DNA of 61,049 nt, the filler included, from an uncultured virus (IMG/VR IMGVR_UViG_3300005239_001275) (lineage: Duplodnaviria > Heunggongvirae > Uroviricota > Caudoviricetes > Crassvirales). It is 4 parts of one record of this genome, joined end to end, with 100 filler letters (N's around TTAATTAATTAA, not from the genome) between each part and the next. Parts side by side here need not be neighbours in the genome. Positions count along the whole stretch, not along the records: positions 1 to 26,683 come from IMGVR_UViG_3300005239_001275; 3 more parts are not named here. One strand, written 5' to 3'. The notes under the pieces were generated by a model, which was not told the origin of the DNA, made no database searches, and worked only from the letters and a program-made list of their open reading frames with translations. This document shows, one piece after another, positions 1,897 through 59,683 of this stretch. Position 1 is the first letter of the stretch, and every line of letters starts with the position of its first letter. The position numbers and the translations under genes are program-made.

Positions 1897-4800
1897 CTAG
1901 TAAACAAAAGAGAATTGGTAGTTGCTTGCAGAAGGACTTAAAGGTGTTGAAGTACCTGTCCCTGCTGTTAAAGTAAAAGAAGGGGCGTATGTACCAGCAT
2001 AAACTAAGCAACCCCCTGTTATTGATTCGTTTCTAGCAAGCTTGTTTAATATTCCTGGCTGCATGTTACTACCACCAAAATCATTAACAAAGTCATACAA
2101 TTGATAAGATTGTCCACTCCAACCTTCACTATCCCAGCTAATTGGAGGATTATAATTCTGTGAATAAGCATAAGGATCTAAAAGTATGTTACTACTGCCA
2201 TTGCTTGATATTAAATTTTGCCAACTAGGAAAATCTCCGGAGTTTTCAGCTGTATTAGATCCACTCACCCAAGCATAGTATCCATTTATTCCTGTTCCAA
2301 AAAGATTGTCACCACCTGGATCGCAAACCTTAACAATTATAAACTTGCCTTGATAAGCTTGACCTGTGCTAGTATTAGAACTACATGATATAGCGTAATA
2401 ACCATCGATAGTCCACTCTTGAAGTGAACATAGTTGAAGCCCAGTTTTAATTATAGCCTTGCATTGCGTTGTGCTACCTGGATCAGAAACTTCGTAAGTT
2501 ACAGTATATACGTCTGAAGGCATGTTAGAATCCTGATAACCATTGTTAACTAAATCTACTTTAGCAGCTGAGTTGAATAATGCTGGTCCTGGGTTTTCAA
2601 AAGCAAAGTAACCTGGAGGTGGTATAGTTTGTTCTCCAGGTGTTCCAGCTCCTCTAACTTCACTTATTTTAGTAAAAGTTAAATCTTTGTATCTATTGGT
2701 GTTTCCTAATAAATCTGTTTGTCTCCAACCAGCCCCATTAACAGCTTTTAGTTCACCTATGTATCTAACGCTGGTTGAGCCAGGCTCGAACGGAGGCAAC
2801 GGACAGTCGTCCCAAAGCTCAGAAGTATCTATACATGATAAAGGTTGATCTTTTACAACTGTAACAGCTTGCGAAACCTCTAGTGTAGCTGGAGAGCCAA
2901 ATTCTAACTTAGAATTAGAAGAAGGACCAAACGCGTTTATACTTATATTATTACTTAAAGTCACGGTCATTTGACCACTAACCGGTGTGTTGTCTTGAAT
3001 AGACAGAACACAAGTGCCCTCTGGTACGTTCCCAGAAAAGCCTTGAGTTGTTAAATAACACATGTCATCTACATTTATAGCTCCACTAGCAAAAGGCCAG
3101 TTATAAGCCACAAAAGTGTTGTTATTAGAAACATCATTTATAACACCGAAAGGAACAATAGGATCTCCAGGAGGAGAGTAAGAATTTCCACTTGTCTGCA
3201 AACCAGAAGGTAGTGGATTTGAAGCATCAGTTGTTGTAACGTCCCAGCCTGAGCTAATACCACTAACGCTTGACCCAGAGTAAACTTTTACTACTGTAAC
3301 TCCAGTTTGATCTTTTAGCACTTTAACATTGGCAGAATTTCCGCTAGCTGTTGGTATATGCGGCTGAGTGTTACCTAAGTTTAATTGTTCTGATTTAGTA
3401 AAAGGCAAGCCATTTACAGTTGCTGAAAAATTAAAAGTAAAGTTTCTAGCATTAACATCTACGCCATACCATATTTCAGCCACAAAACCAGGGGCAGTTT
3501 TTATCATATATTGGCGGTTTCCTAATGTTGTTTCTGATAAAGAAAAAACAGGAGAAGTATAAGCTGTTTGAACATTTAGCCCGTTGCCATCTATTACACT
3601 CTCTAAAACTAAAGGTGTTTGATCTGAAACAGCTATAGGTGAACCAAAGTTATCCACTAAATAAACTGGAGCTTGTAAGCAGTCTTCACCAGACCTTAAG
3701 CTTTCATTAAATGGATTATCGTTCCAAGGTGAAAAACCTGCCGCGCCTGTACCAGTTAAATTCTCGTTTATTATAATATCATTTATATCTTTAACTATTC
3801 CAGTAGTAGATGTTTCCCAAAATATATCCAATAAACTTTCTACTGGCTCGGTTTCATAAACCGCTAAATACTGTATTCCTGGGGCGTCAGCGCTATAAAC
3901 ATTTATTTCGTCGCCTAAAGCTACTGAAACTGCCGAAGAAACAACTAGTTGTGCTGGTACAATAAAGTTTAATAATTGGCCTCCAGCAACCTGTACAACA
4001 TTGTTAACCTCAATGTCTAAACCTGAAACGTTTAAAACCACTGTACCTTCTGGAACACCTGTGGTAGCTCCTACGACTTGACCAGCTTCTAGAGGAATAC
4101 TACCTGCTCCTATTGAAGACAGTGTAAAAGTTGTTCCTGTAAAACCAGAAGGAGCAACTTGAGCGTTGGATCTAGCAACATTTGAATCGGTAAAACCTGA
4201 ACCTGCAACAACTAAATCTGTTGGAAACCCTGGGCCAACAACGCTATCACCAATTTCTATTTCAGCTTCGTCACCTGATACTGATGTTATTTGCAGCGTA
4301 TCTGTGGTTGCTGTCACGGCTATAGTGGCACTTACCGCGTTAAAGTTTACATTAGCTACTTGACCTATTTTATTAGCTGTATTTATTCTAGCTATATAAG
4401 GATTTGACTCTAAAGAATAAAACTGTGGAAAAAGTTTGGNNNNNNNNNNNNNNNNNNNNNNNNNNNNNNNNNNNNNNNNNNNNNNNNNNNNNNNNNNNNN
4501 NNNNNNNNNNNNNNNNNNNNNNNNNNNNNNNNNNNNNNNNNNNNNNNNNNNNNNNNNNNNNNNNNNNNNNNNNNNNNNNNNNNNNNNNNNNNNNNNNNNN
4601 NNNNNNNNNNNNNNNNNNNNNNNNNNNNNNNNNNNNNNNNNNNNNNNNNNNNNNNNNNNNNNNNNNNNNNNNNNNNNNNNNNNNNNNNNNNNNNNNNNNN
4701 NNNNNNNNNNNNNNNNNNNNNNNNNNNNNNNNNNNNNNNNNNNNNNNNNNNNNNNNNNNNNNNNNNNNNNNNNNNNNNNNNNNNNNNNNNNNNNNNNNNN

Positions 4801-7403
4801 NNNNNNNNNNNNNNNNNNNNNNNNNNNNNNNNNNNNNNNNNNNNNNNNNNNNNNNNNNNNNNNNNNNNNNNNNNNNNNNNNNNNNNNNNNNNNNNNNNNN
4901 NNNNNNNNNNNNNNNNNNNNNNNNNNNNNNNNNNNNNNNNNNNNNNNNNNNNNNNNNNNNNNNNNNNNNNNNNNNNNNNNNNNNNNNNNNNNNNNNNNNN
5001 NNNNNNNNNNNNNNNNNNNNNNNNNNNNNNNNNNNNNNNNNNNNNNNNNNNNNNNNNNNNNNNNNNNNNNNNNNNNNNNNNNNNNNNNNNNNNNNNNNNN
5101 NNNNNNNNNNNNNNNNNNNNNNNNNNNNNNNNNNNNNNNNNNNNNNNNNNNNNNNNNNNNNNNNNNNNNNNNNNNNNNNNNNNNNNNNNNNNNNNNNNNN
5201 NNNNNNNNNNNNNNNNNNNNNNNNNNNNNNNNNNNNNNNNNNNNNNNNNNNNNNNNNNNNNNNNNNNNNNNNNNNNNNNNNNNNNNNNNNNNNNNNNNNN
5301 NNNNNNNNNNNNNNNNNNNNNNNNNNNNNNNNNNNNNNNNNNNNNNNNNNNNNNNNNNNNNNNNNNNNNNNNNNNNNNNNNNNNNNNNNNNNNNNNNNNN
5401 NNNNNNNNNNNNNNNNNNNNNNNNNNNNNAGCGTTGTCTATGGTTATTGTACCTGTGTTTCCAGCTCCAGCAGTAGTAGCAGTCACCATTGTTCCTTCAG
5501 GTATACCTGGACATATAACAATGTAACCAATTTGTATAGTTGAACCACCTTTTGGCGTGTAATTAGTAAAAGTTATAGTAGTAGAACCTGTTGATATTGC
5601 GTCTGCGTCTACAGTAACCTCGTTCAAAGCCAACTCGCTTTTAGCTGAAATAGCTACATTATAATTTAAACTATCAGGAGCAGTGTGCTTGTCTTGAAAA
5701 TTACCGTATATAACTCTATTACCAGAAACCTCTTGAGCAAAAGCTCTAACTGGTACTTTATCGTAAACTCTTATTAAATCTCTTTCAGGTAATGTTTTGA
5801 TTGGCTTTTTAGAGTTGTAGTTGTATATGTAGTAATCTGGTTCACCTATAGTTAAAACTGTATTGTCTACTATTGTTTGGGCGGAACTAAGCGTTATGGT
5901 GCCTGAAGTGCTTGGGTTTTCATTAGGATCGTCAGGCGCGTAAGAACTAACGGTTACAACTGAAGTTCCTAATATACCAAAACCTGTTACTCTGTCGCCA
6001 ACGTTTATACCGCCTTGAACATTGTCTACAGTAAGTGTTGTTGTGGTCGTGTTAGCAGAAGCTTGGCACGTCGCTGCTGAGTTAAAAATAGTGTTAATAT
6101 CTACAGTATCAATAACCTTAACAGGTAATTGATCTGACTCTTTATAGAGCAGTTCCATAGATTTAACTTTTAATAAATTTTCTAACTCATAGTTATTAAA
6201 CGGTAAAGGTATTCTAAGCTTTATATTGTCTACTTTATTTTCAACAAAAGAAACTATTGTACTTCTATAAGCTTCATCTTGATCGTTAACGCTTTCTATA
6301 TTATCAGCTGAAGGCTTATTAACATACATAAAATACCCGTCTTGTTTAGGTATAAATGCGGCTTGTGTAAATGTAGAAAACAATGAATACTCATCATCAT
6401 CAAACTTAAACCTGTACCCAAACCTAACAAATTTATCTTCTAAATAAGTAGGATCTCCAGCGTAATCATTATCGTAATAAGGATTTGCATTAAAAACTAT
6501 ATCTTGAATGAAGTTTGTTAATGCTGGTAAAGTTCCACCGGTTACGGTCACTTCCCACACAGGCGGGCTAGCGGAGCTATTATAATTTAAACTACTAACC
6601 GTAGTTCCCGTGTCTACGATTGACGGTGGTATAGAGTTTGTCGTATAGTAAACTTTAGCCCCGACAGCTCCATACGCGCCATTTGCTTCGATTATGTCTC
6701 CTTCTAAAGTTCTTAAATTTACTTGACTTGCTCCAACAGATACACTATCTTGAATATTACCTTTACCCCCGTTTGGTAAGTAAAAGCTTGTTGTGTCTTT
6801 CATTGTGCTTTCGTACTCATCAGTTGAAGAAGTTGATAAAGTACTTTCCGCGTAAAGCTCTATGGCTGAGTGAGGATTATATTTAGCTACAGATATTTGA
6901 TCTTCTGTTGTATAGTAATTAGATATATTAGTGGCGTTGTCTATGTTTATTTTTCTAGGTTGATTTTTATTGTCAGTCCAGAAAAGTAAGTTTTCTAAAA
7001 CATTAGCGCCATATATAGGAAATTGTGTAGAGAAATTTAGAAAAGCACCTTGAACTAGAGTAGTTAATGAGTTGTCACTTGAATCAAAAGTTATTATAAA
7101 ATTATTTCCACTAGGACTATAGTCGTTTATCCCACCATTTTGATCTGTAAAAAACAAATAAGCTACAGCTTTTGAATCATCTACAACGTAACCTATACAA
7201 GTTAAATTAGAAACACCAGTGTGAACACCAACGTCTCCAACGTTTGTATTACCTAAAACATTTTCCAAAGAACCAACTTGTTCACCTTCAGACTTGTTTA
7301 CCTGTACATTAACTGCATTTCTATATTCATTAGAGCCAATTATACGAGCGTCCAAATCTTTATTCATTTTGGACTTTAAAAATGTATTTTTAGATTTAGC
7401 CAT
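1897..7403 (-). CDS. Large tail (stabilisation-type) protein, interrupted by an N gap
   Basis: N-terminus MAKSKNTFLKSKMNKDLDAR..EYRNAVN, plus KFVRFGYRFKF and LAVYETEPVESLLDIFWETST. Open frames flank the 4440-5429 gap, and joining them into one gene is inferred. Confidence 0.65.
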
Positions 7404-10379: not shown

Positions 10380-12172
10380 TTATGCTCCTTTGAAAAGAAC
10401 AAAGTTGTTAGCAGCTTGAGTTACTAAACATCTTTCAGATAGGAAGTTTACTTCCATAGCATCAAGAGTTGAAGTAAACGCACCACCAGCAGAACCAGTC
10501 AACCAAGACTTCATACGACGATCATCAGCTTGTGAAGCTCTGTATCGTACATGTAAAAATGGGCGACGAATATTAGTTCCTAATACTTGATCGTATACAG
10601 TTGACGTTCCAGCAGGTACTAATACACCTTCGATAGACTGAATTCCATCAATCGCACCACGAGTAGAAGCGTCGTTTAAGTATTTCCAATCAGTTTTGTA
10701 GAAATCATAAGAACCTCTACGGAAACCACTAAAACCTAAGTTTAATGCCATTTCTTCTGAGTTTTCAAATAATCCATAAGCAGTACCACCAGATTGTCCA
10801 GCAGAAATAGCAGATAGCATATCGTCAAAATCCAAAGCAGTTTGTCTTTGTAAAAATAACATGTTTTCTTCAATAGCTCCTTGAGTGTCTAAGTTTTTCA
10901 AAATAGCATCAAAAGCATCAAGACCAGCAGCAGCTGTAAATCCAGTGTTTACATTACCACGATCTTCGATAGCGGCAAACAAACCTTCAGTACCAGCTAG
11001 CTTAGCAGTTGTAACAGCAGCTATTCCTTCATTCTTTTCACCTTCAACCATAGACATTTCTAAGTAATCTTCAAAACGTAAACGAGTTTCAGATTCAGCT
11101 TTTAAATACCATAAATATCCAGAAGTACCATCTTCGGTCGCAACTTCAACCCATCCAATTTGNNNNNNNNNNNNNNNNNNNNNNNNNNNNNNNNNNNNNN
11201 NNNNNNNNNNNNNNNNNNNNNNNNNNNNNNNNNNNNNNNNNNNNNNNNNNNNNNNNNNNNNNNNNNNNNNNNNNNNNNNNNNNNNNNNNNNNNNNNNNNN
11301 NNNNNNNNNNNNNNNNNNNNNNNNNNNNNNNNNNNNNNNNNNNNNNNNNNNNNNNNNNNNNNNNNNNNNNNNNNNNNNNNNNNNNNNNNNNNNNNNNNNN
11401 NNNNNNNNNNNNNNNNNNNNNNNNNNNNNNNNNNNNNNNNNNNNNNNNNNNNNNNNNNNNNNNNNNNNNNNNNNNNNNNNNNNNNNNNNNNNNNNNNNNN
11501 NNNNNNNNNNNNNNNNNNNNNNNNNNNNNNNNNNNNNNNNNNNNNNNNNNNNNNNNNNNNNNNNNNNNNNNNNNNNNNNNNNNNNNNNNNNNNNNNNNNN
11601 NNNNNNNNNNNNNNNNNNNNNNNNNNNNNNNNNNNNNNNNNNNNNNNNNNNNNNNNNNNNNNNNNNNNNNNNNNNNNNNNNNNNNNNNNNNNNNNNNNNN
11701 NNNNNNNNNNNNNNNNNNNNNNNNNNNNNNNNNNNNNNNNNNNNNNNNNNNNNNNNNNNNNNNNNNNNNNNNNNNNNNNNNNNNNNNNNNNNNNNNNNNN
11801 NNNNNNNNNNNNNNNNNNNNNNNNNNNNNNNNNNNNNNNNNNNNNNNNNNNNNNNNNNNNNNNNNNNNNNNNNNNNNNNNNNNNNNNNNNNNNNNNNNNN
11901 NNNNNNNNNNNNNNNNNNNTGTAATCTATTTGTTCAGACCAAATAACTTGATCAGACGTCATTGGCATTTCAGCGCCGACCATTCGTAAGAATCCAGATA
12001 ACGTTCTGTTTCCATAACGCTCTACTTCTTGTTCGTAAATTTCAGGTAAGTACTGCTGAGCAAATGTATCAGTGTTTCCAGCGCCACCGTCGTTAAATTT
12101 TAGGTAGTTAGTATCTAGCAACTGTTGAGTTTGGCTAGGGATAATACTACCAAATTGGTTGTTTAAACTCAT
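10380..12172 (-). CDS. Major capsid protein (gap 11163-11919)
   Basis: N-part QQYLPEIYEQEVERYGNRT..MTSDQVIWSEQ; C-part GYLWYLKAESETRLRFEDYLE..LNLGFSGFRRG..NNFVLF. Follows portal and scaffold and is followed by a terminator. Confidence 0.85.
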
Positions 12173-12186
12173 AATATTAAGTTTTT

Positions 12187-13371
12187 TTAGTTAAATTTTT
12201 TAGTTTTAATTTTTAGTTTTGTAGAATCAGCACCAGAAATAGCTTTAACTTTAAAACCGTTTAAAAACACTTCCCCTTGAGTTGACCTAGCTTTAGTGTC
12301 ACTCACGTTTTTAGAATTGCTTACAACGTCTTTAACAGCGTCTGCTTTTCCTTGCTCATAAAAATGAGCTGCTATTTTATCTACATTTTCAGCGGCATAC
12401 ATAGCTTTATGATAACCTTTATAGTCACTAACAGAGCCATTTTTATCTAGGAACTTCCCGATTAGGTTGTTAATGTCTGATTGTTTATCAGCAACACCGT
12501 CAGTGTTTTGTAGTTTATACCTATACTTCTTTTCACCTACACTAATATCGAAACCTTCGAAATCTTCAGTAAAAAGTTTTTTAGTATTTTCTTGAAACAC
12601 TTTACGGTTTTCTTCAGCTTGTTCTTGCTGCTTATTATATCGATTGAAAAAGTCCATAGCTTTTTGAGCTTCAGGGTTTACGTTTGATTTCAACTTGATA
12701 TCAGCGTAATATTTTTCCTTAGTGCTTTCCAAAAAGTTTTTGGCTTTTGCAACTTCTTCTTTAAATGCAAGTTTTTTCTTGCGTATATCTCTATCTTCGT
12801 CTAAGTCTTCGTCATATTCAAAATCTTCTAATAACAAATCAATATCTGAACTATCGAGATATGGTTTTTCTTTTTTATAATACTCTTTTAATAATGTATT
12901 ATCATCTACATTAGAGTAATCAGCGTTGAGTCTTACGTAGTCTTCTACGCTACCACCAGTTTCTTCCATAAAAGAAACTAATTTTTCTATATTTTCAGGT
13001 AATTGTTTACCTAATACCTGCTCGTCTCTTACAGCTTCTTTTAATTCTTTTTCTACTTCAGTAACTTCTTCAATAATTTCTATTGGAGATTCTACTGCTT
13101 CTTCGGTGGTCCGTACTTCTTCAACCACTTCTTTGCTGTTGCCACTGTCTTTGGGCTTTTCGACAATAGCATTGCTATCATCTGTCTTTTGTGTTTGAAC
13201 GGCATCTTCTTTTGGTATTTCAACTTTAATAACATCAGGTATAACTTCTCCTTGAGCCTCTGGCTTTGTTAAGTCTACTTTAGTTATTTCTTCTTTTTTG
13301 TTTAGTTTTTTAGGTGTTACTTTCTTTTTCTTAAGTTTAAACTCACCTTCTTGTTTTACTTCTGTTGACAT
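12187..13371 (-). CDS. Acidic capsid scaffolding-like protein
   Basis: 394 aa, E/K-rich, between portal and capsid; homolog at 58981-59683. Confidence 0.65.
   Translation of the reverse strand: MSTEVKQEGEFKLKKKKVTPKKLNKKEEITKVDLTKPEAQGEVIPDVIKVEIPKEDAVQTQKTDDSNAIVEKPKDSGNSKEVVEEVRTTEEAVESPIEIIEEVTEVEKELKEAVRDEQVLGKQLPENIEKLVSFMEETGGSVEDYVRLNADYSNVDDNTLLKEYYKKEKPYLDSSDIDLLLEDFEYDEDLDEDRDIRKKKLAFKEEVAKAKNFLESTKEKYYADIKLKSNVNPEAQKAMDFFNRYNKQQEQAEENRKVFQENTKKLFTEDFEGFDISVGEKKYRYKLQNTDGVADKQSDINNLIGKFLDKNGSVSDYKGYHKAMYAAENVDKIAAHFYEQGKADAVKDVVSNSKNVSDTKARSTQGEVFLNGFKVKAISGADSTKLKIKTKKFN
13092..13205 (-). CDS. Overprinted 37-aa basic protein (MPFK..KW..KY) inside the scaffold gene
   Basis: Alternative frame reads MPFKHKRQMIAMLLSKSPKTVATAKKWLKKYGPPKKQ*; a homologous nested ORF is at 59443-59562. 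Confidence 0.65.
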   Translation of the reverse strand: MPFKHKRQMIAMLLSKSPKTVATAKKWLKKYGPPKKQ

Positions 13372-13401: not shown

Positions 13402-15789
13402 CTACATAAAGGCACCAAGACCTTGGTCCGGTTGATTTTCAAAGTCTATAGGTAAGCCGTCATTTTTTCTTTGACTTATCATTTCACTTTGTTGGGTCGC
13501 TTGTATTTTTGTTCTTTTATCTTTACGATCTTCTATAAACTGTTCTTTGTTTCTTTCTACTTGAATATCCATCTGCTTAAGTTGCATGTCGTACTGGAAC
13601 TGTCTTTCCATCTCGGCTTGCTTTATTTGAGCTGCAACTTGCATTTTCTGCATTTCCATTTCTTGCTTGGCTTTTTCAATATCAACTTTAGTTGATGCTA
13701 CAGCCTCTTGTTTTTGAACTTCAGCCATAGCAGTTCTCTCAGCTGTTTGAGCTTGAGCATCTGCTTGAGCGGCAATATTAGCTTGTTGAGCAGCTTGATC
13801 ACGTTCCATTTTAACCTTACGCTTAATCTTTAGCATTTGATTAGCTAACTTAAGGTTTTTAATTTGACGTATATCAATAGCGTCTTCTAAATCAATACCT
13901 CCAGACTGTAATGCAACTTGTATGTTTTGTTCTAATTGAGCTCTTTCCTCTTCATCAGGTTCTAACTCTAAGAATATACCGAAGTCATGAAGATTTAAAT
14001 CTACAACTTCATCTAATGTTTTTATGTTGTATGTAGATATAGAGTTTTGTAACGATGCTCTAGTTAATGGAAAACGTAAAGCGTCAGCTACTTTTAATGA
14101 AACATTTTCTGCTAGTTTAAGGGTCAAATATAAACTAGACTGAACAATATGTCTAGTTGCTACATTTGAAGCGTTAGCGGCTAGTTTCTGTAAACCTACA
14201 AGCGTGGATTTATCAGGCGTACTACCATCTCTAGCTTCATTAAGCCCCGTAACGTCACGTATCATTTGTAAATAGTATTGATACGTAGTTATTAAACTTT
14301 GTATTTTACCACCACCACTAGAACTATTAAGTTCTTGAATAGGTACTTTACCGTGGTTTAATTCACCATCTTGCGTTAGCGATCTACCAACAATACTACC
14401 AGTTTGAAAATACATATTTAAAGCCTCGGCTGGATTGTAGTTTGTTCCATTACCTAAATCAACCTCTGCTAAACCGTCCATATCAAGATATACACCGTCC
14501 GGCACCATTCTTGATAATACTTGCTGCAATTTTAAATGCGTGATTTGTATCATATCAGCAAATCCAACACACTTACTGACAACAGACTCTATTCTACCTT
14601 TATATATTCTAGGCGCACAAATAGCATAATTCATAGCAACCTTGGTTGTGTCAGCGTATGGTCTTGACATGTTTTCAGCCAACTCCCATTTAAGCATTGT
14701 ATCTGTTCCTAAAACAACAGCTCCATTGTAAAGAACCTCTATAGTTCTAGATACTCTCTCAAAGTTATCATTTTCTGGTGGATTAAATGTATCTGGCTTT
14801 TCAATAGCCTTCATCAACCCTTGATCAGTTTGCTTTATTTTAAATACTTGATTGTGGTATGTCTTATAATCAAAATACATAACCTGTACAGTGTTTTCAT
14901 CATAATCACCCCAACCAGTTATATATGATCTATTTCCAGGCATATTTTGAATACGCTCTAATTCTTTTTCAGATATATGTGGAAACTCTTTTTTAAGCTC
15001 AGGTATAGTTATAGCTTTTACCTCACCAACATAGTATATGTCTTCAAAGTTTGGATCTTCAGAATACGAGTAAACCATATAAGCCGGATCAACGTAATCA
15101 ACTTTAATACCTTCTGCAGTGTTAAAACTAGTTTTAGCAGCAGCAATGCCTAATACGGTTAAATCCATATTAAGTCTACGTCTAACTAAATCATATTTGT
15201 TTTGAGCAAAAACAGTGGATATACTTTCTTCTTCAGCTATCTCAATTGATTGCTTATAACTTAATTGCATTTTAAGTTCCAGCTCTTCTTTGGATTCTGG
15301 TATAGTAGTTGGATCTGGCGATTGATATAAGTCAATACCTAATGTTTGCTTAACACTTTCTATATAATCTTTAGCAACCATATCCTCGTAAAGCTTAGAA
15401 GCATACTCTGTTCTTTTCTTTACAGACTGAGGATCTTGAGCATAAGCCTTAATATCATAAGACTTTTGAGATATACCGTTAACAACAATATCTACGAACT
15501 TAGATAAAATTGGTACTGGTTTCCAGTCTAAATTAAGATAAGACAAATCGCCATTAATAGACAACTCATCTTTATATTTTTGTATAGACTGCTCACCTCT
15601 AGCATACAGTCTTAGATTATGAAAGTTATTCCAATTAGTTAAATATCTATTTCCATTAGTTCTACCTTGTCTAAACCACTCGAACTCTATGGCTTGAGCA
15701 ACTTGCTTACCATATTCTAAAGTGCCTTTTTCTTCGTTGCTTACAACTTGACTAGGAAAAGAACTGTCATTATTAGTATAAACGTTCAT
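13402..15789 (-). CDS. Portal protein
   Basis: 795 aa following TerL, with LNLDWKPVPILSKFVDIVVNG, IRDVTGLNEARDG and a C-terminal Q-rich coiled coil. Confidence 0.85.
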   Translation of the reverse strand: MNVYTNNDSSFPSQVVSNEEKGTLEYGKQVAQAIEFEWFRQGRTNGNRYLTNWNNFHNLRLYARGEQSIQKYKDELSINGDLSYLNLDWKPVPILSKFVDIVVNGISQKSYDIKAYAQDPQSVKKRTEYASKLYEDMVAKDYIESVKQTLGIDLYQSPDPTTIPESKEELELKMQLSYKQSIEIAEEESISTVFAQNKYDLVRRRLNMDLTVLGIAAAKTSFNTAEGIKVDYVDPAYMVYSYSEDPNFEDIYYVGEVKAITIPELKKEFPHISEKELERIQNMPGNRSYITGWGDYDENTVQVMYFDYKTYHNQVFKIKQTDQGLMKAIEKPDTFNPPENDNFERVSRTIEVLYNGAVVLGTDTMLKWELAENMSRPYADTTKVAMNYAICAPRIYKGRIESVVSKCVGFADMIQITHLKLQQVLSRMVPDGVYLDMDGLAEVDLGNGTNYNPAEALNMYFQTGSIVGRSLTQDGELNHGKVPIQELNSSSGGGKIQSLITTYQYYLQMIRDVTGLNEARDGSTPDKSTLVGLQKLAANASNVATRHIVQSSLYLTLKLAENVSLKVADALRFPLTRASLQNSISTYNIKTLDEVVDLNLHDFGIFLELEPDEEERAQLEQNIQVALQSGGIDLEDAIDIRQIKNLKLANQMLKIKRKVKMERDQAAQQANIAAQADAQAQTAERTAMAEVQKQEAVASTKVDIEKAKQEMEMQKMQVAAQIKQAEMERQFQYDMQLKQMDIQVERNKEQFIEDRKDKRTKIQATQQSEMISQRKNDGLPIDFENQPDQGLGAFM

Positions 15790-18000
15790 TTAACTTATTA
15801 TTTTTGATGTATATCCCCTGTTGTCATATCTTTTAATACCTATGTCAACGGGTTCTGTTTTTCTTTTATTTACCGGTGTGTATCTATGTTTATTGCAAGC
15901 CATTAATGCTAAGCCTGAGCTAATAGATGCATCGTGAGATGTTCTATTATTAATATTAAACTTAGCCCAGTCTTCAAGCGTTCTTTGAAAATACATATCA
16001 CCGTAGCCAGTTTCCTTTAATCCAACAAAGTTTTCTATATAAGATTCTATAGCTGCAGCATGCGCTTGTTTAATGTCTTCACTAGAGTTTGGTATTCCAC
16101 CTATCTCTTTTTCTGTTACAGATAGTTTGTTTCTAGTTCTATCTGGTCTGTTCATTGCAAAACCTCTATAACCTCTTTTTTTAAAGTAATATAAAAGTCT
16201 TGGCTTATTGTTTTCTGCTAGTATCGGCATGCCATAAAAAGCACAGGCCATTAACACGTCTTCAAAAAATATTTCAGCTGTTTGAGGTCTTGCTATATAT
16301 TCTAAGAAAAAATGATTAGGTGGCGCGTCTTCCATTGAAAACTTAGTTAAACCATGAAGAGATCCATTAGAACCTCTTTTATCTACTGTACCTGAAATAT
16401 CATAAGGATCACATCCAAACGCGCCTAAGTGTTCGTTTCCAGGATAGAACCTACCATTTTTACTGTATTTTTTATTTTGCAAATGCAAGGGTGGAATCCA
16501 AGATACTAGAAACCTACCGCTTTTGTTTGGTGTGAATATGACTCTACTGTCCTGCTGACCGTTCTCCCACTGAAAACTACCTTTTGTAACATTTGTAGAA
16601 TTACGCATATCTTCGTTAAAATCTATTTGCTCGTATATCTTAGTTAGATTAAACAAAGATTGTTTAGTTTCATCTCTAAACGCGTGCTTCTCTGTTCGCG
16701 GAAACTGTCTGTAAAATTCATTAAGACCATCTTGATCTTGCTTTAATCCTTCTACCTCGTTCTCCCAGTATTCTATTACACCTATTTTTATCTTTTCACC
16801 TTGAGGTCCTTCAACCGGTTTACTTGGTGTGTCGAATACAGGTAACCCATAAGAGTCAATGTATCCTTCGTAGTTCCACTCCATAGGTATGAACAAAGAA
16901 TATAATCCGCTGCGAGTCTGTCCATTGGCGTTTCTTTGGGTAACATCTGAGTCATCATAAAGTTTTTTAAAGTTTTTGCCTCCTTTATCGTGCGAGTTTG
17001 ATGTACTTCCCATCATGCACCTACCAATAATTCTACTACCTAATCTCAAACAAGTTTTTGTAACTCGCCAGTTGTTTAATATATTATTAGGTCTTTCCCA
17101 CTTACCACTTTCATCGTGGACTAGTAACTTTAGTTTCTCCCCGTCGTACGAGTTGTCCCCCGTGTTCTTCCAGTCGATCGTTGTGTCGAGCCCGTCAAGC
17201 TCTTGAAGCTTTTCGTTTGTTTCAAGCTTACGCCTGGTATACTTGGTGGCTGGTACTCTATAGGCAAGCTCTGTTTTTGGCCTGTCCATACCGTCTTGGA
17301 TCGGTTTGAAGAAGAACGGGTAGTTGACAGATATCGGTACGACTTTATCTGTGAACATTTTCTTAGCATCGGGACCAGACTTTGACAAGATACCGTACCG
17401 TGCATCTGACGTAATTGTTGCCACATTAACGGTTTCTGCTGAAGACATAAACGAAAATCCTGAACGTCTGTTCTTAAGATAGCACATCCCATAAGACCGT
17501 GAGTCGGCTTTACAAGCCTCCCAGAATATAAAGAATAATCTGTTTGATTCCCTAAAGTCTGGCTGCCCAATGTCAATTTTGCTCCACTGCAAGTACATAT
17601 AATGAGAGCCAGTAATGTAAGTAGCCACACTCTTATTATAGAACCAAAACCCTTGTTCTCTTTTATTAAATTCACTATCGATGTAATCATACCATTTTTC
17701 CTTAAAGTCCACTGGGTATTCCTCCCAATCGAACACAGACTTTATTTTTTTAAGTTCTTTAGGGTATTCTGTATATTGCCACTTATTACGTTCAAATTTT
17801 TTTACGTTATTAGCTTTAGGTAAAGCTATTTTAAGGTTTTGTATTTCATATATTTCACCTATTTCACCAGTCTTGCTAATAACAATAACATCGTAATCTT
17901 CATTATATCCATACTCCCACTTTTTAGCTTTATTTATTTTAGCTACAGTATGTGGTTTTATATGATCATCTAATACTTTATATAATGTTTGTTCGTACAT
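15790..18000 (-). CDS. terL: Terminase large subunit
   Basis: Walker A-like KNRRSGFS, Walker B LLVHDESGK, motif III MGST and nuclease GCDPYD. Confidence 0.9.
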   Translation of the reverse strand: MYEQTLYKVLDDHIKPHTVAKINKAKKWEYGYNEDYDVIVISKTGEIGEIYEIQNLKIALPKANNVKKFERNKWQYTEYPKELKKIKSVFDWEEYPVDFKEKWYDYIDSEFNKREQGFWFYNKSVATYITGSHYMYLQWSKIDIGQPDFRESNRLFFIFWEACKADSRSYGMCYLKNRRSGFSFMSSAETVNVATITSDARYGILSKSGPDAKKMFTDKVVPISVNYPFFFKPIQDGMDRPKTELAYRVPATKYTRRKLETNEKLQELDGLDTTIDWKNTGDNSYDGEKLKLLVHDESGKWERPNNILNNWRVTKTCLRLGSRIIGRCMMGSTSNSHDKGGKNFKKLYDDSDVTQRNANGQTRSGLYSLFIPMEWNYEGYIDSYGLPVFDTPSKPVEGPQGEKIKIGVIEYWENEVEGLKQDQDGLNEFYRQFPRTEKHAFRDETKQSLFNLTKIYEQIDFNEDMRNSTNVTKGSFQWENGQQDSRVIFTPNKSGRFLVSWIPPLHLQNKKYSKNGRFYPGNEHLGAFGCDPYDISGTVDKRGSNGSLHGLTKFSMEDAPPNHFFLEYIARPQTAEIFFEDVLMACAFYGMPILAENNKPRLLYYFKKRGYRGFAMNRPDRTRNKLSVTEKEIGGIPNSSEDIKQAHAAAIESYIENFVGLKETGYGDMYFQRTLEDWAKFNINNRTSHDASISSGLALMACNKHRYTPVNKRKTEPVDIGIKRYDNRGYTSKIIS

Positions 18001-41857: not shown

Positions 41858-43578
41858 ATGTGGAATGAAAACTGGAAAAAAGGTGAAGATTACCCTGCGT
41901 GGGGTAATAACGACGTATACAAGAAGACTGTATCCGGGGGATATTTACTCGACGACGAGTCGCCTAGAGAAGCATACATGCGCGTCGCTAAAACGGTTGC
42001 TCGTAGATTATATAAGCCGGAAATGGCAGAGACTTTCTTCGAGTACATTTGGAATGGCTGGCTTTGCCTCGCTAGCCAGTACTATCTAATACAGGTACTG
42101 ATCGCGGCTTGCCTATTAGCTGCTTTGGCATTGATGTGGCTGATAGTATACAAGATATAGGACAGAAAAATTTAGAGATGATGCTACTCGCTAAGCACGG
42201 CGGTGGAGTTGGTATCGGAGTTAATATGATTAGACCCGCTGGCGCTAAAATTACAGGAAATGGAACATCAGACGGAGTCGTCCCTTTCTGCAAGATATAC
42301 GACTCAACAATTCTCGCAACTAATCAAGGATCTGTCAGACGAGGAGCTGCTTCAGTTAACATTAACATTGAGCACGATGATTTTGAAGAGTGGCTTGAAA
42401 TCAGAGAGCCAAAAGGAGACGTTAACAGACAGTCGCTTAATCTACATCAATGCGCAGTTGTTGGTGACAAGTTTATGCGTAAGCTTGAACAAGGAGATAA
42501 GGACGCTAGAAATAGATGGAGTAAACTACTTAGAAAGCGAAAGGCAACTGGAGAACCGTATATCATGTTTAAAGGAAATGTTAACAAATCAAATCCAAAA
42601 GCATATAAAGAAAACGGACTAAAAGTACATATGACAAACATATGTTCAGAAATTACATTACACACAGATGAAAACCACAGCTTTGTTTGTTGTTTATCAT
42701 CATTAAATCTAGCAAAATATGAAGAGTGGAAGGGTACTAACCTTATATACGACGCTATATGGTTTCTCGATGGCGTTATGGAGGAATTTATTCAAAGAGC
42801 CAAAGGGCTCAGGGGTTTTGAAAATGCCGTTCGTTCTGCTACTAAGGGACGAGCACTTGGGTTGGGTGTACTCGGATGGCACACGTATCTCCAGGAAAAT
42901 GGCCTTCCTTTTGAAGGTCTCCTCGCTCAGTTTGAAACTAGGAAAATCTTTTCGCAGATTAAAATCGAAAGTGAAAGAGCTTCCAGAGATCTTGCTGAAA
43001 TTTATGGCGAGCCTTTGTGGTGTGCTTCTACTGGTATGCGTAATACTCATCTTCGTGCTATTGCTCCCACTGTTAGCAATTCAAAGCTTAGTGGGAACAT
43101 CTCGCCTGGAATAGAGCCTTGGGCTGCCAATGTATTTACAGAGCAATCTGCTAAAGGTACGTTTATACGTAAAAATCCTACGTTACTAAAACTATTAAGA
43201 AAACTTAAAATTAATACAAATGAAACTTGGGATAAGATACTCGCAGATGGTGGTAGCGTTCAAGGTTTATCTGAGCTTGATGGGGTTGTTGTTGGCTCAC
43301 ACGAAATCCCTGCGAAAGAAGTATTTAAGACGTTTAAGGAAATTAATCAATTAGAGTTGGTTAATCAAGCTGGTATACGACAGCAATACATTGATCAAGC
43401 AGTAAGTTTAAATCTAGCTTTTCCTAGCGTAGCAACACCAAAGTGGATTAATCAAGTTCATATGCAGGCTTGGAAAAATGGTATTAAAACTTTGTATTAT
43501 ACAAGAACTGAGTCAGTATTAAGAGGAGATATAGCGCAGCAGGCTATGAGTGAAGATTGTGCTGCTTGTGACGGTTAG
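41858..43578 (+). CDS. nrdA: Ribonucleotide reductase class Ia alpha subunit (frameshift near 42075, probably an error)
   Basis: PISCF, GGGVG, TNICSEI, VCCLSSLN, AIAPT, KTLYY and C-terminal CAACDG. Confidence 0.92.
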
Positions 43579-46937: not shown

Positions 46938-49900
46938 NGCTTCTTCAACTTAGGTGATTTTTTATCTGCTTGCTCAGCTATTGTCATTAAGGCGTTTTTA
47001 ACACCAGCAATAACTGCGCCTTGAATACCAAGACCTTTTAACTGCGAATCAATAGCACCATTTATAGTTCTTTCTAACTTTTGCTCTTTATTCTTTTCTG
47101 TTAACTCTTCATCATCTTCGTCATCATCAAACAATGCCCAAGCTAAACCGCTTTGTAGCGCGTTAAATAAAAGGTTTTGCATAGCGCCATAGTAAACTAT
47201 TTTAGATATATTGCTTCTCCAATCACCTCTTTTGTTTACCAAATCTTGCACAGCTCTTTTTTGTATACGCACATACTGAAGCTGCGTGTTACCAAACTGA
47301 AGTATAATACGACCAATTAAAGATCTTTGCTGCTGACTAATTCGCATTGGACTACTAGACTGCTGGTTTTCCTCAGCTATAGCTCTAAAGTCATTAAAAG
47401 CCTGTTCTTCCGCTGCTTTTCTGTCCATACCTTGTTCAACCAAGGATTCTATTCTATTTCTATAAAATGTAGCACCACCAGAAGCAATAGCAAAACTATC
47501 CGCGTATCTTGTGAATACAAAACCTTTATTAAGCAAGTATGATATAGCAGCGTTAACTTTATTTTTGCTACCTTCAACAGCATCAGCTATCTCAGACTCA
47601 CTTACATTAATTTTAAGACCATCTCGTCTTTCAAGCAAGTAATCAGAGTTCATAAGAGTTAAGAAGTCACCCCAAAATTGTTTTTGGTTAGCAAACGCTT
47701 TACCCGCCTTTAATATATTATTATCACCCCAATTTATAAAGTTTACCGCAGATATGGTCTGTAATACTGCAGATCTTGTGTTTAAGAACATTATAGCACC
47801 AACAGAGTTGTTTAGCCAGTCTAATATACCGTTTGATACTCTATCGCCGCCTAACGGTCTATTGCTACCAGTCTTCATTGCTCTTAGCGAGTCTTTCAGT
47901 GCTTCAACATACTTAGCGCCAAAAGCAGCTTCTAGCTTATTTATGTTCTTTTCAGAAAATATAATATCTACATTTTCTTGCCACTCTTGTAAATATTCTT
48001 TTCTATTAACCTTATTAATACCACCTATAACGTCTGTAGTTATAGTGCCAGCTGTCCAGTCTTTACTAGGTTCCGGATATGGCTTGTCTTTTTGTATTGT
48101 TATTAAGTTGTCAGCAAATACACTGAGTTCAGCGTCATTAGCTATAAAATCAGTTAATCTTTTTTGATCACGCTTAGAAAGTCCTGGAACTTCAATACCT
48201 TGTTTATTCCATATGTAAGTTCTAATAGCATGCTGATATGTATACTTAGCAATACCAGTTTCTTTTTCTAAAGTTTTNNNNNNNNNNNNNNNNNNNNNNN
48301 NNNNNNNNNNNNNNNNNNNNNNNNNNNNNNNNNNNNNNNNNNNNNNNNNNNNNNNNNNNNNNNNNNNNNNNNNNNNNNNNNNNNNNNNNNNNNNNNNNNN
48401 NNNNNNNNNNNNNNNNNNNNNNNNNNNNNNNNNNNNNNNNNNNNNNNNNNNNNNNNNNNNNNNNNNNNNNNNNNNNNNNNNNNNNNNNNNNNNNNNNNNN
48501 NNNNNNNNNNNNNNNNNNNNNNNNNNNNNNNNNNNNNNNNNNNNNNNNNNNNNNNNNNNNNNNNNNNNNNNNNNNNNNNNNNNNNNNNNNNNNNNNNNNN
48601 NNNNNNNNNNNNNNNNNNNNNNNNNNNNNNNNNNNNNNNNNNNNNNNNNNNNNNNNNNNNNNNNNNNNNNNNNNNNNNNNNNNNNNNNNNNNNNNNNNNN
48701 NNNNNNNNNNNNNNNNNNNNNNNNNNNNNNNNNNNNNNNNNNNNNNNNNNNNNNNNNNNNNNNNNNNNNNNNNNNNNNNNNNNNNNNNNNNNNNNNNNNN
48801 NNNNNNNNNNNNNNNNNNNNNNNNNNNNNNNNNNNNNNNNNNNNNNNNNNNNNNNNNNNNNNNNNNNNNNNNNNNNNNNNNNNNNNNNNNNNNNNNNNNN
48901 NNNNNNNNNNNNNNNNNNNNNNNNNNNNNNNNNNNNNNNNNNNNNNNNNNNNNNNNNNNNNNNNNNNNNNNNNNNNNNNNNNNNNNNNNNNNNNNNNNNN
49001 NNNNNNNNNNNNNNNNNNNNNNNNNNNNNNTTGTGATATAGCCATTTCAGCTCTATTATAAGGATCAAGTAAATTTGTTTTGTAAAAAGCCATTTGAGCA
49101 TCTCCAACCTTGCCTTCACCTAGTGTTCTGTAAAGCAAACCAACAAAATCTTCAGCTGATGGTGTTGTGAAGAAGGTAAATTTACCTTTATTTGCGCCAA
49201 CTGTTTTGGCTTTAGCAGCAGAAAACTGTTTATAAGATTTAATACCTGTTTTAGCTTCAATAATGTCATTAAATATTTTATCGAAAGTTTGTTCTTTACT
49301 GAGCTTAGCTTGTTGAACTTTTGATTTAACATCTATTTGGCTTAATACGTCTTTAACAGCTTTAACATTTTTAATTGCATCATCAGCAAAGTAAAAGTCA
49401 TTATAACCTTCAGCTGCTTTACCAGCTACCCATCTACCTTTTGCAGCAGCAGTACCATCACCTAAACCTGTTATGTTTGCTAAAGGTATATCAATACCAT
49501 TAGCTTTCATGAAATCTTGTATAGGCTTAGCAGCGTCAGCAGGTCTAGCTGTTAATATAAATACATCATCAGTACCTCTTGCTTTAGCTATTTTTTGAGC
49601 CACACTAAATAATGGCCCTTTTTCACCTTCAATTACTCTGCTAAACTCTCTAAAATCAAACTGTGCGCCTTGACTTTCTAAAACATCATATTGAGTAGCA
49701 AAACTGCTTGCGTCAACTTTACCAACTTTATTAGTATTTATACCAGCGTAAACTTTTTGTAAAAAGTCATCAGGTAAAGGTTTACCGTATTCTATAGTCT
49801 CCGTATTAATCTCGTATAAACGATCACCAAAATCTTTTCTATATTTAGCTAAACTTTCTTGAACTTGATCATAAGTTTTTTCTACAACAAAGTCAGGTAA

Positions 49901-58880: not shown

Positions 58881-58980
58881 NNNNNNNNNNNNNNNNNNNN
58901 NNNNNNNNNNNNNNNNNNNNNNNNTTAATTAATTAANNNNNNNNNNNNNNNNNNNNNNNNNNNNNNNNNNNNNNNNNNNN

Positions 58981-59683
58981 AAAAGTCCATAGCTTTTTGT
59001 TGGTCTTGTGTCGTACCAGGTCTCAACTTGATTTCCTCGTAATATTGACTTTTTAAACCATCTAAATGCTTTCGGGCTTTTGCAACCTCTTCTTTATACG
59101 CAAGTTTCTTTTTACGAATCTCACGCTCCTCATCCACTTCTTCATCATATGAAAAATTATCTTCAATCATGAAGTTAATTTCACTTGAATCTAAGTGTGA
59201 TTTGGCTTGTTTGTAATACTCTCTTAATAGAGTATCATTATCTACATTAGAATAGTCTGCATTTAATCTTACATAATCTTCTAACGTTCCACCAGTTTCT
59301 TTCATAAAGTCTACAACTTTTTCGATGTTTTCTGGTAGCTTAGCTACTTCTCTTGCCTCTTCAGGCGTTGGAGCAATAACTTTTTCTTCAATTTTTTCCC
59401 CTAATTCTACTATTTCCTCTTCAACAACCTGCTCTACAGGTTTTACTTCTTCTTCAACTTCAGAAATCGGGCTGGACTCTGGTACTTGTTCGTCCACTTC
59501 AGGGCTATTTCCGGTTTGTTCTTCCACAACCACCTTCTTTGTTTCTCCGACTTGAATGGCATCTGTTTCTTTTTTAGGTTCTTCTTTTTTTGATAAATCG
59601 ACTTTAATAATATCGTTTTTTACCAATTGTTTAGGCTTCTTTTTTATTTTAAAAGAGCCTTCTTCTTTTACTTGTTCTGACAT
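58981..59683 (-). CDS. Scaffolding-like protein, second genome, partial
   Basis: LPENIEKVVDFMKETGG.LEDYVRLNADYSNVD matches 12187-13371. Confidence 0.7.
59443..59562 (-). CDS. Overprinted 39-aa basic protein inside the second scaffold gene
   Basis: MPFKSEKQRRWLWKNKPEIALKWTNKYQSPARFLKLKKK*. Confidence 0.7.
   Translation of the reverse strand: MPFKSEKQRRWLWKNKPEIALKWTNKYQSPARFLKLKKK

Follow-up and report, generated by a model that had tools for sequence, protein, structure and literature searches.

Evidence for a small basic protein gene nested out of frame within the scaffold-like genes of probable tailed phages

Introduction

In phage phiX174, gene D encodes the external scaffolding protein and gene E, which is read in the +1 frame of D, encodes a membrane lysis protein; given this role of D and this frame of E, the pair is the textbook example of a gene nested in a scaffold gene. 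In phage T4, a short N-terminal capsid targeting sequence is common to otherwise unrelated proteins that reside inside the head. Gene E nested in D is described as an internal overlap, in which a small gene lies wholly inside another in a different frame, and E as a de novo frame of restricted distribution (PMC8227390). Among tailed phages, the Rz/Rz1 spanin genes of lambda and its relatives occur in embedded, overlapped and separated architectures (PMC6139136).

Here, we describe a gene within a gene in a window of 61,049 nucleotides (the whole stretch of DNA that was analysed, filler included) from the uncultured virus record IMGVR_UViG_3300005239_001275. Each of two scaffold-like genes in the window very probably nests, in full, a separate +1-frame gene for a strongly basic protein of 37–39 residues. 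The likeness to E and D is that a small gene lies wholly within another gene in a different frame. However, phiX174 is a single-stranded DNA microvirus of 5.4 kb under extreme size pressure, whereas the genomes considered here are probably those of double-stranded DNA tailed phages; E is described as de novo and restricted, whereas the present gene comes from a wide and older family; and E is a membrane lysis protein, whereas the present peptide is strongly charged (net +11) and lacks a hydrophobic segment. With Rz/Rz1 the locus shares the occurrence of one family in several architectures, the family defined below being embedded, separate or fused in frame. The Rz1-type proteins, however, are outer-membrane lipoproteins with a lipobox that function in lysis, whereas the window peptides are encoded in a head module and contain no cysteine, hydrophobic stretch or signal sequence on inspection of both, and no sequence relation between them and Rz/Rz1 was found. 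An embedded lysis gene, whether like phiX174 E or like an Rz1-type o-spanin, was considered and rejected, as neither a transmembrane segment nor a lipoprotein signal is present in the window peptides. The T4 targeting sequence offers an analogy of layout alone, a short N-terminal module on varied cargo; the two share no sequence similarity, no site of cleavage was found in the module described here, and its packaging is hypothetical.

The scaffold-like host genes

The first genome spans roughly 44 kb of the window, judging from the layout of open reading frames (ORFs). Its host gene (12187–13371, minus strand) encodes 394 amino acids and is preceded directly on its 5′ side by a portal gene (13402–15789, minus; phrog_6547 portal protein, E 1.1e-145) and followed directly on its 3′ side by a probable major capsid gene (10380–12172, minus; phrog_13704 virion structural protein). 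The phrog_13704 match (E 3.7e-58) covers 10380–11057, and the probable capsid gene reads as two ORFs because it is partly masked by an N run (11163–11919). The gene order is terminase (phrog_6681), portal (phrog_6547), host gene and phrog_13704 virion protein. In the second phage genome, the 3′ part of the scaffold-like gene (58925–59683, minus) is masked by N so that its true end is out of sight, and the neighboring portal gene (59715–61049, minus), cut at the window end, resembles the first, its translation being by eye close to the C-terminal part of the first portal.

According to an alignment of host proteins (A3), the first host protein is conserved at its N-terminus and, from residue ~124, in its C-terminal domain; the acidic linker between them, whose DNA contains the nested gene, is hypervariable. 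The two window proteins are 47% identical overall, and host proteins from four other loci with the nested ORF are 42–47% identical to those of the window. The linker around the nested site is gap-rich, which bears out the first-pass annotation of this DNA, where the host-frame acidic linker had been called poorly conserved. The host gene matched no Pfam family at E ≤ 10, its PHROG matches are weak and to function-less families, and no match to described scaffolding families was found; it does lie between the portal and major capsid genes, as a scaffolding protein gene should. We call it scaffold-like from its position and composition only. Its closest cultured relatives are annotated as "structural protein", and scaffold-like proteins of Flavobacterium and Maribacter phages are 37% identical to it, which suggests a Bacteroidota host; marine Flavobacteriia are the likely hosts of the lineage. 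In scaffold-like proteins that are more distant (elemo phages, MW202828), the linker is missing and the alignment begins only at residue ~121.

The nested reading frames and their products

The copy in the first genome ("H type") occupies 13092–13205 and that in the second ("S type") 59443–59562; both ORFs are present as first annotated and lie on the minus strand. They consist of 37 and 39 codons, respectively, each followed by a stop codon, and encode the peptides MPFKHKRQMIAMLLSKSPKTVATAKKWLKKYGPPKKQ (copy 1) and MPFKSEKQRRWLWKNKPEIALKWTNKYQSPARFLKLKKK (copy 2). The nested starts lie 166 nt (copy 1) and 121 nt (copy 2) past the host-gene starts, and both ORFs are therefore in the +1 frame of their hosts. 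The T of the nested ATG falls on the third position of an Asp codon of the scaffold frame, where a change to ACG would be silent. A 47-residue form of copy 1 could start from an upstream in-frame ATG at 13235, but that ATG is not conserved. The two peptides share 12 identities over 34 positions (E 0.001, in a single comparison). The expectation of a small and very basic product agrees with a net charge of +11 and a pI of about 10.9–11.0 for both. AlphaFold2 predicts helices at residues 6–13 and 18–31 for copy 1 (pLDDT 84) and at 6–15 and 17–27 for copy 2 (pLDDT 78), so that the predicted product is a two-helix hairpin broken at a conserved proline.

Conservation in related loci

Viral contigs were scanned with three scaffold queries, and each of the three scans returned at least about 600 matches, from which at least 240 loci were obtained. 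The lineage is abundant in marine viromes by the same count. Among the matches listed, 239 of 240 loci cover the site; the exception, L322, shares one contig with L229, which shows the nested ORF. A +1-frame ORF beginning with MP[F/Y/I] is kept in all 239 covering loci among the matches listed, which include 209 distinct 400-nt contexts; the start codon is ATG in 238 and TTG in one, and the ORF is 30–54 residues long in 238. The first-pass annotation had held the ORF to be kept in both genomes, and it proves to be kept far beyond them; random stops or loss of the ATG, which would have spoken against it, are limited in these homologs to one premature stop and one TTG start. In the same host genes, the +1 frame outside the nested ORF has one stop per 13.5 codons, and the conservation is therefore more than chance would give.

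A few sequences depart from this pattern. L002, one of the 239 listed loci, has a premature stop after 25 codons of the nested ORF, a deletion in L028 joins the N-terminal part of the scaffold to the small ORF, and four database proteins (P0001–P0003 and P0007) switch from the +1 frame, in which they start, to the scaffold frame. Such cases may be indels from assembly or genuine disrupted variants. Wherever the host ORF was traced (79 + 79 + 71 = 229 loci), no stop interrupts the scaffold frame over the small gene, and the ORF runs continuously from the conserved N-terminus for 385–442 residues.

Selection and composition

The alignment check for constraint that had been suggested for this region was made with 47 distinct sequences of the S type and 20 of the H type. 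In the overlap, variable columns at scaffold codon positions 1/2/3 number 21/13/7 of 29 for the S type and 20/4/2 of 35 for the H type, whereas in the control, the conserved domain of these genes, they number 10/4/28 of 29 and 12/7/31 of 35, respectively. The rhythm is reversed: variation is greatest at the third positions of the +1 frame in the overlap and at those of the scaffold frame elsewhere in the gene. Of the possible changes that leave the nested product as it is but alter the scaffold residue, 26 of 44 and 22 of 60 are seen in the two sets; of those with the opposite effect, 7 of 61 and 2 of 68 are seen (Fisher p 3.5e-7 and 5.9e-7). Pairwise comparison of the amino-acid sequences likewise gives a higher mean identity in the +1 than in the scaffold frame (0.78 vs. 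0.63 and 0.93 vs. 0.73). Judged by this pattern of substitution, purifying selection acts on the nested frame in its own right, beyond what the host frame can explain. With the nested frame selected and the scaffold frame kept open, the DNA is truly dual-coding.

The stretch had also been noticed as rich in G+C and in rare codons, and both features are evident. The nested stretches have a G+C content of 44.7 and 45.0%, whereas the remainder of their host genes has 31.1 and 32.8%, respectively; read in the scaffold frame, the overlap has a codon-adaptation index of 0.51, lower than the 0.72 and 0.68 of the other parts. More generally, embedded copies have 46.1% G+C versus 34.9% in their loci, whereas 35 stand-alone short genes of the same family have 37.1% versus 39.3%; such an island in embedded and not in stand-alone copies is expected if stops are avoided in two frames. 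The index of the +1 frame, 0.41 and 0.32, is lower than the 0.51 of the scaffold frame in the same stretch, and the codon-usage test of age therefore does not favor the small gene as the older resident. This low adaptation could reflect horizontal acquisition or simply the dual constraint.

Initiation and expression

The nested start follows an A-rich stretch (13206–13235, minus, for copy 1), a putative initiation region lacking a Shine-Dalgarno sequence. In 93 distinct upstream sequences, A occurs at −13 in 92%, at −12 in 77%, at −6 in 95% and at −3 in 67%. A at these same four positions stimulates initiation in Flavobacterium johnsoniae (PMC6847099). Among 35 long ORFs of the window, only 4 are preceded by a Shine-Dalgarno-like core. 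The ribosome would thus start independently at the conserved ATG behind an A-rich leader without a Shine-Dalgarno sequence, which would suit a host of the Bacteroidota type.

The position of the gene implies co-expression with scaffold and capsid, as the first reading had it, and the protein would then be made late, from a portal–scaffold–capsid message. Contigs from two libraries labeled metatranscriptomic (X2 and X7) cover the ORF; as these are contigs only and DNA carry-over is possible, cover is not proof of transcription, and the gaps in two further RNA-library contigs that do not cover it (X6 and X10) are not informative. One of the two that cover the ORF shows four differences; each of them changes an amino acid of the scaffold protein, and none alters the nested product.

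A family of small phage proteins with a common N-terminal module

By profile and sequence comparison, the nested product is a member of a large family of small phage proteins, undescribed and unnamed, that share an N-terminal module of ~30 residues. This family, for which we use the name MPFK, is defined by two alignments, A1 and A2, the latter of stand-alone members only. The signature of the module is Met-Pro-Phe-Lys, Gln8, Pro17, Ala20 and Trp23, usually followed by a basic tail. In A1, M1, P2, F3, Q8 and W23 are invariant and K4, K7, P17 and A20 nearly so, and both window peptides carry all of them; in a wider alignment (A4), only M1, P2, F3 and Q8 remain invariant.

Stand-alone homologs, proposed earlier as something to look for, were found. 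A search with a 44-residue embedded peptide returned 175 small proteins, the clearly stand-alone ones with E values down to 1e-8, and a profile search of 1.84 billion representatives returned 3372 clusters at E ≤ 1e-3 and 963 at E ≤ 1e-10, the best 150 of the 3372 matches lying in proteins of 45–767 residues. Against the stand-alone profile A2, hhalign gave E 1e-22 for copy 2 (probability 99.5%, 66% identity over 32 columns) and E 7.9e-6 for copy 1 (probability 84%, 38% identity over 29 columns). The module occurs in three architectures: as separate small genes, at the head of proteins of 100–800 residues, and embedded in the scaffold gene.

Neighborhoods were annotated for nine loci (of 15 picked from 80) and for one GenBank phage, 023Pt_psg01. 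In L168, L173 and 023Pt_psg01, and partly so in L184, the short stand-alone form has a portal gene on one side and GroES-like, scaffold-like and major-head genes on the other, whereas the long form in L221, L224, L205 and L219 stands after a phrog_3287 virion protein and before a phrog_4287 "DNA ejection protein". In L196 a short form is followed directly by the remainder of a long form. The scaffold-like gene beside stand-alone short forms (phrog_28737) was considered as a relative of the window host gene and rejected (hhalign probability 0.2%), and therefore no shared ancestry is claimed for this synteny.

Known families offer little to which the module could be joined. In the PHROGs, the sole library family touched is the function-less phrog_1375, which copy 2 matches weakly (E 0.0088) and copy 1 does not match; stand-alone members match it at E 3.8e-4 to 0.34, through residues 3–27 against profile positions 17–41 of 70, and the profile begins 16 positions ahead of the module. 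Nothing above chance was found in Pfam for the window peptides, stand-alone members, long forms or divergent embedded types. The ESM Atlas contains unnamed viral clusters and a neighboring DUF3008 cluster (score 0.84, with that family in 15% of its members), but DUF3008 (PF11450) was rejected, since 2 window peptides, 9 members and 7 divergent embedded types had no Pfam match at E ≤ 10. Sequence-profile matches to the PDB were summed weak repeats in designed propellers and are regarded as spurious. Foldseek found no match in the PDB at E ≤ 0.001 and only uncharacterised family members in BFVD, and a full-text literature search with the peptide motif found no paper.

Alternative explanations

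The gene might be real and its protein unrelated to the head, a small basic regulator or host-takeover factor that modulates through binding to RNA, the ribosome or DNA. Small two-helix basic proteins are common nucleic-acid binders, and the contexts of the family are mixed: a member adjoins the holin gene in Streptomyces phage FlowerPower, copies lie among small unknown genes, in unannotated gaps of the GenBank records, in P-RSP2, S-CBS2 and C75C1, and one member weakly matches phrog_385, a "transcriptional regulator" (E 0.027). Nevertheless, the module lies within structural modules in all three architectures (embedded, short and long), and no early-gene context was seen among the annotated loci, so that we regard a regulator as rather unlikely. 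A frameshift product, in which the ribosome slips into the +1 frame on an A-rich run to make a fusion of the scaffold N-terminus with the peptide, could draw on the A runs abundant upstream, and the DNA of L028 encodes exactly such a fusion. It is very unlikely in view of a +1-frame stop that lies 1–23 codons 5′ of the nested ATG, at varying distance, in all 158 loci measured, of the start kept in all 239 listed loci (238 ATG, one TTG) with an invariant Met-Pro-Phe in A1, and of the module match that begins at residue 1 or 2 in 149 of the best 150 of the 3372 family matches.

Two other explanations would remove the overlap or the gene. The scaffold ORF could be a short upstream gene and a separate C-terminal domain, with the small gene between them and the frame open by accident, as the poor conservation of scaffold-frame residues over the small gene and the linker-less proteins of the elemo phages and MW202828 might suggest. 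However, the frame is open in all 229 traced loci, the first ATG past the small gene comes only at residue ~134 of the window protein, and the G+C island is found in embedded copies and not in stand-alone ones; we consider such a split extremely improbable. Lastly, a chance or decaying frame, conserved through constraint on the scaffold protein or on RNA structure, would fit a short ORF with low +1-frame codon adaptation, but is barely credible when the three-base rhythm of variation follows the +1 and not the scaffold frame, the peptide has homologs among thousands of proteins that were called independently, and the ORF is intact in 238 of 239 listed loci despite the stop rate elsewhere in that frame.

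Origin and function

With a genuine nested gene as the preferred reading, the label "overprinted gene" given to it at first stands in one part and falls in another: there is a second gene in the scaffold-like gene, but birth inside that gene does not suit a family that is older and wider. As the family is mostly stand-alone or at the head of larger proteins, and is far wider than the scaffold lineage, the scaffold linker is the likelier newcomer, and the acidic linker is more likely the younger reading and the small gene the older. The small gene would have come first; a scaffold frame that later extended across it would have given rise to the acidic linker as a mirror image of the basic peptide.

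The head or DNA-binding role proposed for the product in the first-pass annotation was too firmly put, the relevant observations being its charge and the neighborhoods of the nine annotated loci and the one GenBank phage. From gene neighborhoods only, a head-internal or DNA-associated role is a tentative reading, somewhat short of probable. The protein may act in or on the head, either as a DNA-associated internal protein or as an adaptor whose module docks an assembly component and whose basic tail binds DNA, and we hold this with the same reserve. A targeting role like that in T4 would explain why the module stands at the N-terminus and heads cargo of any length. A bolder and doubtful extension is that the module is a general signal for loading into the head in many marine and soil phages, which docks the portal, the scaffold or the capsid interior and carries cargo as small as a DNA-binding tail of ten lysines or as large as an ejection protein of 800 residues; here a gene for signal plus tail would have been swallowed by the scaffold gene, so that a single message would yield linker and peptide at a constant ratio, and the two may even pair during assembly.

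Significance

The gene has never been annotated and is borne by a large group of uncultured marine phages. It provides very well supported out-of-frame nested coding in probable tailed double-stranded DNA phages, where such genes are rarely annotated, as gene callers forbid out-of-frame nesting by design. It also reverses the usual story of overlap, with an old and widespread nested gene and a host linker that is likely the newcomer, and is thus a test case for the origins of overlaps. In addition, a large small-protein family without a Pfam entry, of 3372 representative clusters, has been uncovered, some members of which are missed even in GenBank phage records. Its three architectures lead to a testable hypothesis on how small basic proteins or large internal proteins may be loaded into phage heads.

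Nested ORFs and Their Host Genes

The window includes two related phage genome segments, each with a scaffold-like gene that entirely contains a second, much shorter ORF. The first host gene (12187-13371, minus strand; 394 aa) contains an ORF at 13092-13205 (minus strand) with a 37-aa product, MPFKHKRQMIAMLLSKSPKTVATAKKWLKKYGPPKKQ, and the second (58925-59683, minus strand), the 3′ part of which is masked by N, contains an ORF at 59443-59562 (minus strand) with a 39-aa product, MPFKSEKQRRWLWKNKPEIALKWTNKYQSPARFLKLKKK. The nested starts lie 166 and 121 nt, respectively, downstream of the host starts, which places both ORFs in the +1 frame. Upstream of the host genes is a portal gene (phrog_6547, E 1e-145), itself preceded by the large terminase gene, and on the other flank is a probable capsid gene (phrog_13704). 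They have no match among Pfam families or scaffold PHROG families; we call them scaffold-like, a name taken from their composition and their position between the portal and probable capsid genes only.

The first-pass annotation had proposed an overprinted gene at these two places, and its description of the DNA holds. The nested peptides share 12 of 34 aligned residues (E 0.001, a single comparison), and the host proteins, 47% identical overall, are gapped in the linker around the nested ORF. The nested stretches are richer in G+C (44.7 and 45.0%) than the remaining host gene (31.1 and 32.8%) and in rare codons, the scaffold-frame codon-adaptation index being 0.51 there versus 0.72 and 0.68 elsewhere.

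Other genes of the window also include +1 ORFs: one of 186 aa (17130-17690, minus strand), with an N-terminus resembling a membrane or lipoprotein leader and a very basic tail, in the large terminase gene (15790-18000), and two, of 120 aa (42260-42622, plus strand) and 131 aa (42719-43114, plus strand; hydrophobic in its C-terminal stretch), in the ribonucleotide-reductase large-subunit gene (42109-43578). N-masking (18 stretches, 3609 N in total, for example 4440-5429, 11163-11919, 48278-49030, and 58881-58980) breaks up several structural genes, among them the probable capsid gene and, in its 3′ part, the second scaffold-like gene, and the ends of masked genes are unreadable.

Conservation among Relatives

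Viral contigs were scanned with three queries (host protein 1, host protein 2 as far as it is unmasked, and a relative of 42% identity that turned up later), giving at least 80 loci per query and at least 240 loci for the three. Among the 240 listed, 239 cover the site (209 distinct 400-nt contexts), and all 239 carry a +1 ORF at the same place starting with MP(F/Y/I). Its length is 30-54 aa in 238 of them. Random stops or loss of the ATG are confined to one premature stop after 25 codons (locus L002) and one TTG start (L147); outside the nested ORF, the +1 frame of the same host genes has one stop per 13.5 codons. L322 falls short of the site, and L229, from the same contig, has the nested ORF. 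In L028 (about 1430-1640), a deletion with a frame change has put the small ORF in frame behind codons 1-24 of the scaffold-like gene, and the scaffold body has lost its start codon; the locus is either misassembled or a variant dependent on slippage on the A run.

The nested peptides fall into types S (that of the second window ORF), H (that of the first), K, A, C, and Y, whose positions on a rapidly built tree of scaffold C-terminal domains (L001-L327; branch support unassessed) are scattered, the H type falling in about 14 separate runs. This scatter suggests that an N-terminal linker cassette has been exchanged between related phages. In eight relatives (L252-L256, L262, L266-L268; about 2694-2867), the nested ORF is divergent, 46-48 aa long (MPY.G.Q..ACK...PKWHCG), and encodes two cysteines; it is below family-profile detection at E 1e-3. 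A cysteine pair is also found in the nested types of L046, L153, L291, and L299, and these types may represent a metal- or disulfide-bearing variant.

Selection on Two Frames

Variable columns, and observed versus possible single-base changes to the consensus, were counted in the overlap and in the conserved domain of these genes, which served as control. At scaffold codon positions 1, 2, and 3, the variable columns number 21, 13, and 7 of 29 in the S-type overlap (47 distinct sequences) versus 10, 4, and 28 of 29 in its control, and 20, 4, and 2 of 35 in the H-type overlap (20 distinct sequences) versus 12, 7, and 31 of 35. As scaffold position 1 is nested position 3, the rhythm of variation shifts to the nested frame exactly across the nested ORF. 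Of the possible changes silent only in the +1 frame, 26 of 44 (S) and 22 of 60 (H) are seen, and of those silent only in the scaffold frame, 7 of 61 and 2 of 68 (Fisher p 3.5e-7 and 5.9e-7; rough values, as the counts are of alleles and not of tree events). The robust part of this evidence is the reversal against the internal control, by which the nested frame is constrained. Translated in the +1 frame, the overlap gives a mean pairwise protein identity of 0.78 for the S type and 0.93 for the H type; in the scaffold frame, the same DNA gives 0.63 and 0.73. Both readings count: the scaffold frame is uninterrupted across the small gene in all loci with a traced host ORF, and the first host ATG after the small gene is at about residue 134.

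Embedded copies have 46.1% G+C versus 34.9% for their loci, whereas the values for 35 short family genes that stand alone are 37.1% versus 39.3%. The G+C island is thus a property of the overlap and not of the peptide, as would be expected if an A+T-rich genome had to keep two frames free of stops. The nested peptides have a net charge of +11 and the scaffold segments from the same DNA -6 and -10, because the lysine codons AAR, shifted one base earlier, read GAA or AAA.

Expression

How would the small gene be translated? In Flavobacterium johnsoniae, which is described as not using Shine-Dalgarno sequences, initiation is stimulated by adenines at -3, -6, -12, and -13 (PMC6847099). Among 93 distinct sequences, A occurs upstream of the nested ATG at -13 in 92%, -12 in 77%, -6 in 95%, and -3 in 67%. 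A Bacteroidota host is plausible for the window phages, since a Shine-Dalgarno-like core precedes only 4 of 35 long window ORFs and the hosts of the nearest cultured relatives are Flavobacterium and Maribacter. The small gene would accordingly start from its own ATG behind the A-rich stretch. Production by frameshifting as a fusion with the scaffold N-terminus is argued against by a +1-frame stop 1-23 codons upstream of the nested ATG in all 158 loci measured. Contigs of two metatranscriptomic-labeled libraries, which may contain DNA, cover the nested ORF; in one such contig, all four differences are silent in the +1 frame and amino-acid-changing in the scaffold frame.

A Widespread Small-protein Family

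The 44-aa embedded peptide of a relative matched 175 small proteins in a collection of 5.8 billion; most of the 24 examined are 38-67 aa long and read MPFKSEKQRRYLWKNxPxIAxxWxxKYGSK before ending in a lysine-rich tail. A profile was built from 32 sequences, embedded and stand-alone, in which M1, P2, F3, Q8, and W23 are invariant and K4, K7, P17, and A20 nearly so; among 1.84 billion representatives it gave 3372 matches at E ≤ 1e-3, of which 963 reached E ≤ 1e-10. In 149 of the best 150, which are of 45 to 767 aa, the match begins at residue 1-2. A profile of stand-alone members only recovers the window peptides (second, E 1e-22; first, E 7.9e-6), so that the stand-alone homologs sought by the first-pass annotation exist.

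AlphaFold2 predicts two helices meeting at a proline for both window peptides (pLDDT 84 for the first, 78 for the second). Pfam gave no match for window peptides, stand-alone members, long forms or divergent embedded types, a PDB profile search and Foldseek found no relative among solved structures, and a full-text literature search found no paper containing the motif; phrog_1375 (function unknown) matches family members weakly. The GenBank copies in Prochlorococcus phage P-RSP2 (L165, 3001-3120), Synechococcus phage S-CBS2 (L166, 3001-3108), and C75C1 (L167, 3001-3102) lie in unannotated gaps between annotated genes and are missed genes.

Which Frame Came First?

Scanning with the stand-alone profile gave 80 loci, 74 with a motif match, in three architectures: a separate gene of 34-63 aa, the N-terminal ~30 residues of longer, glycine-rich proteins (100-800 aa), and a module embedded in the +1 frame of ORFs of 379-422 aa (five loci). 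Four of the five embedding hosts are 42-47% identical to the window host protein; the fifth, L229, cut by the locus end, has no BLAST match to it. Scaffold-like proteins of Flavobacterium elemo phages and MW202828 align with the window host from residue ~121 (37% identity) and have neither the linker nor the nested ORF. In L196 (4001-5622), a short form of 44 aa is followed without any gap by a 496-aa ORF with the same weak tape-measure-like C-terminus (phrog_5448) as two long forms; the pair resembles a long form broken into two genes, or the precursor of one.

As the family is far wider than its host scaffold lineage, the small gene is most likely the older, and the scaffold reading would later have run through it. 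The overprinted gene of the first-pass annotation is a real nested gene but most likely not a newborn one. Codon usage, described as a test for the older frame in overlaps (PMC8227390), points against this order or to horizontal acquisition, since by the codon usage of the window the nested frame has the lower adaptation index (0.41 and 0.32, versus 0.51 for the scaffold frame).

Possible Role

Of 15 loci chosen from the 80, nine were annotated with PHROGs. Short forms in L168, L173, and partly L184 have a portal gene (phrog_1216) on one side and GroES-like, scaffold-like (phrog_28737), and major-head (phrog_371) genes on the other, a layout shared by the annotated phage 023Pt_psg01. The long forms of L221, L224, L205, and L219 come immediately after a phrog_3287 virion protein, and in L221 a phrog_4287 “DNA ejection protein” lies two genes beyond. 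The neighbors of the module are thus head proteins and internal or ejection proteins, and on the most economical reading the product would be either a small DNA-associated protein inside the head or a basic tail carried by an N-terminal module for docking. We hold this tentatively, as somewhat short of probable; other family members lie beside a holin in one phage and among small unknown genes in others. Of the small basic head or DNA-binding protein first proposed, size and charge are confirmed, and the head or DNA part stays at this tentative level.

Comparison with Known Nested Genes

The external scaffold gene of phiX174 is gene D. Gene E is described as sitting within it, out of frame (PMC8227390). 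In lambda-like phages, Rz1 lies within Rz, and embedded, overlapped, and separated forms of this one family are described (PMC6139136), a range of architectures like that of the present module. Compared with both pairs, the genomes here are probably of tailed dsDNA phages and the host gene is scaffold-like; the product is basic and soluble-looking, unlike membrane lysis proteins, and the nested partner is old and widespread rather than a lineage-restricted newcomer. Nested out-of-frame genes are thus already known, and what is new here is a scaffold-like host with a nested partner that is most likely older than it and widespread.
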